Numbered from the stretch's first letter, positions 42,612 to 43,229 are shown. The stretch is DNA of 64,000 nt from an uncultured Ruminococcus sp. (GCA_964384555.1 CAYLLA010000001.1:6286-70285), one strand, 5' to 3'. Notes: generated from the sequence alone by a model not told the origin. A program made the numbers and translations.

Positions 42612-43229
42612 ATGAAAAAAACAATTAGGTGTATCACTACCGCACTCGCTTTGATCATCGCCTGTATGGCAATAGCCACTCCAACCAGCGCAACATATAT
42701 CTATCGCGGATCTTTCGAAAATTCGGAAGGTGGATTCATTGGAATTGGCGCGAAAAAATATACCTACAAGGTTTACAGAGATGATGTCGGCGCGTATCTA
42801 ATGTATCACAGCAAAGATGCATGCTATCCATTTCAGCACTACCAAAATGTAGGCACAATAGAATTAGCTTACACGATCAGTGTGACATTGAGTAGTCAAA
42901 CGGCGTTTAATTTCAGTAAGTCATTGGGGCTTGAGCTCGGCATATCCAAATTAGCCGCCTTGGCTGCAACAGCCTCAGGCGGCCTTGAAGCAACTACCGG
43001 AATCTCAATTTCTGCTACGGGAACTGTTGGATCAACGCTTCCGGCAAGTTCGCCCACGGGTTTTTATAAGCTGACTCCATGTCAAGATTTTCACCAACGC
43101 CGGCTTGATAAGTACGAGCAAGGCTCTACTATGTTGTTGTCATCCGAATATTGTTTCATCCCGGAGAATGCAACTTATATTGCTATTTTGTATAGTACAG
43201 ATAATTCGTCTTACGGAAAATACAGATAA
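42612..43229 (+). CDS. secreted protein of unknown function (205 aa)
   Basis: GGAGG RBS. Sec signal peptide MKKTIRCITTALALIIACMAIATPTSA. The mature part is beta-rich, with a Ser/Thr/Gly/Ala-rich central stretch (GLELGISKLAALAATASGGLEATTGISISATGTVGSTLPASS). No family recognised. Confidence 0.7.
   Translation: MKKTIRCITTALALIIACMAIATPTSATYIYRGSFENSEGGFIGIGAKKYTYKVYRDDVGAYLMYHSKDACYPFQHYQNVGTIELAYTISVTLSSQTAFNFSKSLGLELGISKLAALAATASGGLEATTGISISATGTVGSTLPASSPTGFYKLTPCQDFHQRRLDKYEQGSTMLLSSEYCFIPENATYIAILYSTDNSSYGKYR

Follow-up and report, generated by a model that had tools for sequence, protein, structure and literature searches.

The subject of this study is a putative toxin operon within a 64,000-nucleotide stretch of DNA from an uncultured Ruminococcus sp. 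(GCA_964384555.1 CAYLLA010000001.1:6286-70285), which in its full length is referred to as the window and whose positions are counted from its first letter. The lead gene of this operon, termed gene 1, is an open reading frame (ORF) at 42612-43229 on the + strand and encodes a secreted protein of 205 amino acids (aa). According to the reading favored here, to which we assign a probability of about one half, gene 1 encodes a minimal aerolysin-type β-pore-forming toxin, while the products of its four partner genes protect the producer or service it. An earlier interpretation of the DNA, in the following called the sequence-only reading, had placed the ORF at exactly these coordinates and regarded its product as an orphan secreted protein, possibly a small β-pore-former or a large bacteriocin. 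The cassette as a whole suggests an undescribed toxin-plus-self-protection system.

The gene 1 protein and its fold matches

The coding region of gene 1 comprises the following parts:

42612-42692, + strand: Sec signal peptide of the signal peptidase I (SPase I) type, residues 1-27, with predicted cleavage after T-S-A (A27), as judged by the family alignment
42693-43229, + strand: mature protein of 178 aa plus stop codon, a predicted aerolysin/enterotoxin-like β-rich module according to models, fold matches and a profile match
42921-43052, + strand: Ser/Thr/Gly/Ala-rich amphipathic stretch, residues 104-147, consisting of two arms and a G-x-G turn, a candidate membrane-insertion hairpin

A Sec signal with cleavage around TSA had been proposed from the DNA, and the alignment of 47 family members agrees with it, as position -1 of the SPase I site is Ala in 45 of the 47 and position -3 is occupied by A, V, T, I or S. 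A lipobox-like motif is confined to two of the 47 members; the possibility that gene 1 itself encodes a lipoprotein (IIAC at C18) was ruled out, the Cys residue being not conserved and the AXA site being conserved. Likewise, the mature part is Tyr-rich as described before, with 9.6% Tyr compared to a family median of 10.2%, and its length ranges from 167 to 195 aa across the family.

Central to the proposed function is the stretch at residues 104-147, in which Ser, Thr, Gly and Ala together make up 66% of the residues. The alternation of polar and hydrophobic residues that had been noticed there was recovered as a β-type periodicity: the β-periodic hydrophobic moment of the family profile has its protein-wide peak at residues 98-114, and a second amphipathic arm, seen in the window's own protein, extends over residues 125-143. 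Both arms are separated by the G-x-G turn at 122-124, the two glycines of which are present in 24 and 37 of the 47 members, respectively. The feature expected of the aerolysin superfamily, a Ser/Thr-rich two-arm amphipathic segment of about 40 residues, is thus present in the family profile of the 47 members. A separate receptor-binding domain or activating pro-peptide, which most though not all members of the superfamily possess, is on the other hand absent from the protein, which with 178 aa, a single-module model and conservation reaching the C-terminus consists of one unit only.

Structure prediction and a fold search had been suggested as a check on the sequence-only reading. AlphaFold2 yielded a model with a predicted local distance difference test (pLDDT) score of 94.2 and a predicted template modeling (pTM) score of 0.80 from the 47-sequence alignment, and of 96.2 and 0.87, respectively, for the mature part with 54 sequences. 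The predicted protein features very long strands at residues 150-169 and 175-195, while the amphipathic core of this soluble model is folded into two short helices (98-104 and 112-122) and short strands. When both models were compared with the PDB by Foldseek, the first ~32 matches were nearly all aerolysin-type or Clostridium perfringens-enterotoxin-like modules. The best E-value, 4.6e-3, was obtained for monalysin, whereas the highest probabilities, 0.84-0.92 over 150-172 columns with a query TM-score (TMq) of up to 0.36, were those of the N-terminal pore module of C. perfringens enterotoxin (3am2, 2xh6, 3ziw, 8u5f), which is similar in size to the gene 1 protein. Further matches were botulinum HA70/HA3, Cry78Aa, the Bacteroides 'putative pore-forming toxin' 3kog, BinAB, parasporin-2 and aerolysin. 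A viral structure library that served as a control gave only unrelated matches with E-values of at least 0.27 and probabilities of at most 0.12.

A second route led to the same protein. When the family hidden Markov model (HMM) was searched against 177,635 PDB sequences, the top five entries were C. perfringens enterotoxin at an E-value of 0.08, and no other toxin was matched in this profile search. The alignment spans residues 90-164 of the query, corresponding to the amphipathic core and the adjoining long strand with the TGYY motif. We take the aligned region of the enterotoxin to be the part proposed as its transmembrane hairpin and to be partly helical in the soluble monomer, and the gene 1 model likewise shows helical portions in its candidate insertion segment. 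No confident match to a non-toxin family arose in the structural or HMM searches. Overall, the fold evidence is convergent, but its statistics are modest and not decisive.

The five-gene cassette and its distribution

The genomic surroundings of gene 1 constitute the other line of evidence. The operon and its flanks contain the following features in addition to gene 1:

42225-47235, no strand: low-GC island of ~5 kb between the gap gene and a response-regulator gene, with 39.6% GC compared to ~53%
42365-42392, + strand: operon promoter, TTGACA, 16 nt, TG-n-TATAAT, a 12/12 match to the sigma-70 consensus with extended -10 element, located 3' of the gap terminator
42399-42611, + strand: 5' leader of ~212 nt with the ribosome-binding site (RBS) GGAGG at 42599-42603
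43239-43275, + strand: intergenic stem-loop, beginning 10 nt after the gene 1 stop codon and devoid of a U-tract
43309-44211, + strand: gene 2, a 300-aa membrane-anchored protein or putative lipoprotein of no known family, as judged by homologue lipoboxes and a position kept in every cassette
44294-45166, + strand: gene 3, a 290-aa putative membrane-fusion-type adaptor with N-terminal anchor (TIGR01730 RND_mfp; position kept in cassettes)
45163-45825, + strand: gene 4, a MacB/LolD/FtsE-type ATP-binding cassette (ABC) ATPase (ABC_tran, 7.9e-28)
45822-47156, + strand: gene 5, a MacB-type permease with a MacB_PCD ectodomain and an FtsX bundle of four transmembrane segments (FtsX, 4.5e-15; MacB_PCD, 3.5e-9)
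47189-47214, + strand: intrinsic terminator ending the operon, an 11-bp stem followed by TTTTTATATTT, near the right edge of the island

The arrangement of these genes is conserved even around distant members of the family. In the cassette, the gene for the family protein (~200 aa) is followed by genes for a protein of ~280-300 aa, a protein of ~285-298 aa, an ABC ATPase of ~220 aa and a MacB_PCD- and FtsX-containing permease of ~440 aa. This order is complete in seven lineages, namely the window, L001 (66% identity in the family protein), L006 (41%), L010 (24%), L030 (22%), L013 (21%) and genome G327. In addition, locus L028 agrees with it as far as its contig extends, and in the genomes G154 and G093 ABC and FtsX genes are found ~2.2 kb downstream of the family gene. 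Hence, of the bacteriocin-plus-immunity layout that the sequence-only reading had assumed, the succession of lead gene, lipoprotein and ABC genes holds down to 21-22% identity, while the roles of bacteriocin and immunity follow from gene context only.

As for the individual partners, neither Pfam nor NCBIfam gave a match for gene 2, but three of the gene 2 homologues possess canonical lipoboxes (LSSC, LSGC and ITAC) at an aligned Cys, and the gene 2 product is a candidate toxin-binding immunity or accessory protein. The match of gene 3 to TIGR01730 is weak, with an E-value of 2.5e-6 and 26.7 bits compared to a cutoff of 94.9, and covers the C-terminal half only. The ABC_tran, FtsX and MacB_PCD matches of genes 4 and 5 all exceed the Pfam cutoffs, as expected of a MacB-type permease with a separate ATPase. 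The best NCBIfam match of gene 4 is TIGR03608, the ABC model of the lactococcin-972 group, at 191.6 bits and thus below the cutoff of 254.85; LolD, DarD, FtsE and MacB score closely behind, which amounts to a generic type VII ABC signature. For gene 5, only ADOP, MacB and FtsX models are matched.

Several cassettes outside the window deviate from the common layout or have conspicuous neighbors. Locus L040 (G093:C54, 2210-9741) harbors two family paralogues (2210-2872 and 5186-5806), each followed by an ORF of ~410-437 aa without Pfam match; after the second pair, genes for a 283-aa protein of membrane-fusion-protein (MFP) size, an ABC ATPase and an FtsX permease complete this variant of the cassette, in which the second gene is larger. 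In L006, two more unannotated gene sets (330-1839 and 2281-6535, within 1-6535) precede the cassette, each ending in an ABC ATPase gene and with partners that lack Pfam matches, and a Peptidase_M78/HTH (helix-turn-helix) pair lies 3' of it, so that this locus may represent a multi-module toxin/immunity island. In L013, two further FtsX-type permeases, one of them with MacB_PCD, and an ABC ATPase directly follow the cassette (11805-14624), resulting in a stack of MacB-type systems. One genome, G147, initially appeared to contain a cassette lacking the lead gene. At the locus concerned (L045, G147:C48, ~6240-6350), a run of ~100 N separates the lipoyl-synthase gene from the family C-terminal motif (...SNSNWKFYS), with the gene 2 homologue and the rest of the cassette after it; this candidate was rejected, as gene 1 is interrupted by the ~100-nt N run with its family C-terminal motif retained. 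The run represents either a gap in the assembly or a withheld piece of sequence.

As had been noted before, gene 1 is the first gene of the island, the low-GC block at ~42225-47235, its RBS GGAGG is followed by the ATG 8 nt further on, and it is located behind a strong promoter and a leader, the 12/12 sigma-70 site lying ~212 nt upstream. This site is exceptional as a single element, although promoter-like sites in the region total no more than in shuffled sequences. The upstream gap gene has a terminator of its own at 42259-42296. A riboswitch or other known RNA in the leader was considered and dismissed in view of a missing Rfam match, a fold z-score of only -2.2 and a conserved block that is confined to the closest cassette. 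This block, at 42553-42603 just 5' of and including the RBS (CCGAATGTGTATGCC...ATGTTAAA...A-rich...ACGGAGG), is kept in the closest homologous cassette (L001/L002), is not present in distant ones and is surrounded by leader sequence that has diverged from L001/L002.

The stem-loop that had been reported after gene 1 is real, albeit at 43239-43275 rather than 43246-43283. Its free energy of -24.6 kcal/mol corresponds to a z-score of -3.3, and none of 200 shuffled sequences was as stable. In L001-L004, the stem has undergone compensatory changes (GTTA/TAAC to GCTA/TAGC, and a T-T mismatch to C-G), while the loop is identical. At the same position, L006 and L013 as distant cassettes have canonical intrinsic terminators of unrelated sequence (13-14-bp stem and U-run), so that the presence of a structured 3' end behind gene 1 is a recurrent design; in L010 there is no gap between genes 1 and 2. 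In many bacteriocin operons, a structure after the lead gene enriches the toxin transcript over those of the downstream genes. The stem-loop of the window is correspondingly a candidate leaky terminator or mRNA 3'-end stabilizer that would favor the gene 1 transcript.

The island itself bears marks of insertion. In G002, the closest relative searched, whose gap gene is ~85% identical, the site is empty and the response-regulator gene starts ~110 bp after gap, compared to ~5 kb in the window. Because the response-regulator promoter motif is common to the window and G002, the right edge of the island can be placed near 47215-47235. Neither flanking direct or inverted repeats nor an integrase was found at the edges. 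Other cassette hosts have 32-41% GC, which makes a low-GC representative of the Clostridia the probable donor. Sequence comparison thus portrays the cassette as sporadic and horizontally acquired. Directly 3' of the island, the window contains a module of host GC content (47284-52898) with a response regulator/histidine kinase pair and a second ABC system that includes a 965-aa tandem MacB-type permease; because the same regulator directly follows gap in G002, this module appears to be resident and the island to have landed beside it.

The protein family is equally scattered. In single-sequence searches, gene 1 had no match in Pfam, NCBIfam, PHROGs, PADLOC or PDB; a word-indexed search retrieved four homologues only (66-70% identity), and a related-locus search with five close homologues as query led to a single contig of a metagenome-assembled genome (MAG). 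By contrast, when the HMM was searched exhaustively against 1.84 billion representatives, 62 were recovered at E ≤ 1e-3, among them 30 at E ≤ 1e-10, and nearly all are of ~200 aa. Among the 62, the long proteins P0030 and P0066 are spurious, being repetitive and unrelated in sequence, and P0061 (890 aa, 13 matched stretches) is probably spurious in the same way. The label of an orphan hence applies to the annotated databases but not to sequence space at large, and the profile search places gene 1 in a rare family without annotation that comprises about 60 representative clusters. The 47-member alignment is characterized by the motifs YxYxVY[KR]D, YHxKxxG, SxxTxxxFSxSxG, GxGxxxTxG, TGYY and PxGxxYxAxxYSxxN, and all public copies recovered, which stem from Clostridia and Eubacteriales MAGs, are labelled 'hypothetical protein'. 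The family is considered rare and patchy because in genome samples 24 congeneric species and 16 further genera of the order gave no match, while only about four of 398 other genomes of the class (about 1%; G327, G154, G093 and G139) contain a near-full-length match. All recovered contexts belong to Clostridia, and wherever a sample states its source, this is a human-gut metagenome. The G139 locus (L041, G139:C2, 9940-10605, - strand) encodes a secreted protein of 222 aa whose match to the family profile is restricted to the N-terminal ~141 columns (hhalign probability 94.8) and which is flanked by a Cthe_2159 carbohydrate-binding protein and a PucR-type regulator, without an ABC cassette nearby; this protein may be a distant offshoot of the fold.

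Proposed mechanism and alternative readings

If gene 1 encodes a toxin, its action could be envisaged as follows. Sec export and signal-peptide cleavage would release a soluble monomer of 178 aa without separate receptor-binding domain, in which the Ser/Thr/Gly-rich segment (~104-143) would be held against the long β-strands. At the target membrane, monomers would oligomerize, whereupon each segment would unfold into a β-hairpin and contribute its share of a transmembrane barrel. In the producer, the gene 2 lipoprotein would intercept the toxin at the cell surface, while the MacB-type pump would expel it from the outer face of the membrane by ATP-driven mechanotransmission, and the stem-loop or terminator after gene 1 would provide toxin transcript in excess over the cassette transcript. 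What we infer in this scheme are the formation of pores, an antibacterial target, a role of the cassette in immunity and an attenuating effect of the stem-loop. A stand-alone pore module fits this scheme because the enterotoxin pore module minus its claudin-binding domain is about the size of the whole gene 1 protein. The target is probably antibacterial: known eukaryote-directed toxins of this fold lack genes of the kind found here, and the near-obligate linkage to the cassette therefore argues that the toxin can damage bacterial membranes and would act as a large bacteriocin. In its most specific form, this leads to the tentative proposal, which we hold to be less likely than not, of a first aerolysin-type β-pore-forming bacteriocin system, in which a Sec-exported 178-aa module kills competing Gram-positive gut bacteria while the co-transferred lipoprotein, adaptor and MacB-type ABC genes clear the toxin from the producer.

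A number of points weigh against a pore-forming toxin with protective partner genes. The resemblance to aerolysin/ETX-MTX2-type toxins stated in the sequence-only reading draws on the fold matches of two models, the profile match and the amphipathic core, but is limited by Foldseek E-values that never fall below 4.6e-3 and hence never reach 1e-3, by TM-scores of 0.2-0.36, which lie under the usual same-fold threshold, by root-mean-square deviations of 7-12 Å and by a profile E-value of 0.08. No significant match to the Pfam toxin models aerolysin (PF01117), ETX_MTX2 and Clenterotox was obtained for the protein at E ≤ 1 or the 47 members at E ≤ 0.1, save for PF01117 at E 0.023 in one member only, a value to be expected by chance in 47 scans. 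HA70/HA3, one of the best fold matches, does not form pores. With regard to gene context, the marginal partial relative in G139 has no cassette, and no orphan immunity cassettes were found, the only candidate (G147) having fallen away. Furthermore, the cassette could serve export, release or assembly instead of immunity, and a prepore of ~140 kDa or more may have difficulty in crossing peptidoglycan to the membrane of a Gram-positive cell. Antibacterial pore-formers were the subject of a review in 2022, which covers colicins as well as toxins delivered by contact-dependent inhibition (CDI) and by type VI and type VII secretion systems (T6SS, T7SS), yet gives no aerolysin-type example (PMC9558359).

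The weakness of the individual scores leaves room for the view that they merely reflect a generic β-rich secreted fold and a grouping of elongated β-proteins by Foldseek; the E-values of 5e-3 to 1e-1 with the TM-scores, deviations and profile E-value given above would be compatible with such an artefact. Nevertheless, the sequence profile and the 3Di matching of two models converge on a single protein and a single region of it, the match lists stay homogeneous down to rank ~32, no such convergence occurred in the viral-library control and the amphipathic pattern is independent of both routes, which makes chance a very improbable explanation. More weight, though still that of an unlikely case, is due to an extracellular protein with aerolysin fold that is not a toxin at all, such as a surface, adhesin or matrix component or a partner of the MacB/FtsEX-like mechanotransducer. 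Type VII ABC systems like FtsEX do not transport substrates but work on partner proteins outside the cytoplasm, the non-lytic HA70/HA3 is among the best fold matches, and toxin models at the sequence level do not match, all of which would be compatible with this idea. However, a strongly amphipathic, Ser/Thr-rich two-arm segment with a Gly turn, as conserved in the family, is the hallmark feature by which insertion hairpins are known, and an adhesin would have no obvious use for it. In addition, the sporadic, horizontally transferred occurrence in ~1% of the sampled Clostridia genomes is typical of weapons rather than of envelope housekeeping, and a presumed high expression of gene 1 followed by a terminator resembles the architecture of bacteriocin operons.

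Should the protein be a β-pore-forming toxin, it might alternatively be aimed at eukaryotic membranes, for instance those of gut epithelium, protists or fungi, in which case the cassette would aid its release from the membrane-wall zone or prevent early assembly. Those relatives in the fold-match lists that have been characterized all act on eukaryotic cells or sit in a toxin complex, the restriction to Clostridia and human-gut sources would suit such a target, and MacAB-TolC has been implicated in enterotoxin secretion by Escherichia coli (PMC4887032). This is opposed by the lack of a receptor-binding domain, as the pore module fills the 178 residues, and by the fact that known aerolysin-type toxins of this kind need no dedicated ABC and lipoprotein genes: bacterial aerolysins spare their producers via receptor specificity, lipid composition and extracellular activation (PMC12691639). 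A near-obligate four-gene envelope machine is more typical of self-protection, and we deem a eukaryotic target rather improbable. The reading of gene 1 as a minimal pore-forming toxin with protective or servicing partners hence remains the favored one.

Comparison with known systems and significance

The closest structural counterpart, C. perfringens enterotoxin, shares only 10-14% identity with the gene 1 protein, which is devoid of the C-terminal claudin-binding domain and instead features a classical cleaved Sec signal peptide and an operon with lipoprotein and MacB-type ABC genes. The enterotoxin, on the contrary, has no signal peptide and is released by sporulation-associated lysis. Monalysin and the ETX-MTX2 toxins (4mko, 4mjt; Cry78Aa, 7y79; BinAB, 5foz; parasporin-2, 2ztb) have the elongated β architecture and a Ser/Thr-rich amphipathic insertion loop in common with the gene 1 protein, but at TM-scores of 0.2-0.27 they differ by a length of 230-420 aa with extra domains or pro-peptides, by animal-cell targets and by the lack of a linked ABC cassette. 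The known targets of aerolysin-family toxins are eukaryotic cells, recently including fungi, and no such toxin has been shown to act between bacteria or is known to be accompanied by a dedicated ABC/lipoprotein cassette.

Among bacteriocin systems, the lactococcin 972 loci (TIGR01653, TIGR01654, TIGR03608) are alike in that a Sec-exported, β-rich and unmodified lead protein is encoded directly upstream of an ABC system. Assignment to this group is not warranted, since gene 1 lacks a match to the family, the ATPase scores 191.6 against the cutoff of 254.85 and no match to the partner with seven transmembrane segments (TIGR01654) was found. Moreover, mature lactococcin 972 has 66 aa, binds lipid II and does not form pores. 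A two-tier immunity is known from lantibiotics, where the lipoprotein NisI is combined with the ABC transporter NisFEG. The nearest functional precedent for the partner genes, by analogy, would be YknWXYZ, a MacB-type ABC system with MFP and accessory membrane protein which protects Bacillus from its own SDP toxin (PMC4887032). A separate ATPase and a permease with MacB_PCD and FtsX parts are common to both systems, each in a monoderm, as is a fourth protein associated with the membrane, while the N-terminally anchored MFP of YknWXYZ has a putative counterpart in gene 3. In the cassette, however, the fourth component is a ~300-aa putative lipoprotein without Yip1 domain (no Pfam or NCBIfam match), and the toxin-like protein is a folded one of 178 aa encoded in the same operon, whereas SDP is a peptide of 42 aa.

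A use of the aerolysin family in microbial competition is documented by the yeast killer toxin K62, whose aerolysin-type module is known via structure prediction and which has bacterial homologues, including one in a Clostridia species (PMC12691639). By its description, K62 differs from gene 1 in its length of 272 aa and in that no linked transporter or immunity genes are reported. What would be new in the present case is a predicted aerolysin-like pore module within a new, mobile and ABC-linked operon.

If the protein does form pores, few stand-alone aerolysin-type modules would be smaller, and it could be used to define the minimal requirements of the prepore-to-pore transition or as a nanopore scaffold. 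The cassette would also constitute a tractable model for MacB-type mechanotransducers that handle a folded protein toxin in a monoderm. The family would likewise add an unannotated class of competition or host-interaction factors to gut Clostridia and, if the proposal of a bacteriocin system is true, extend the aerolysin family to warfare of bacterium against bacterium by means of a new mobile toxin-immunity cassette in these organisms.

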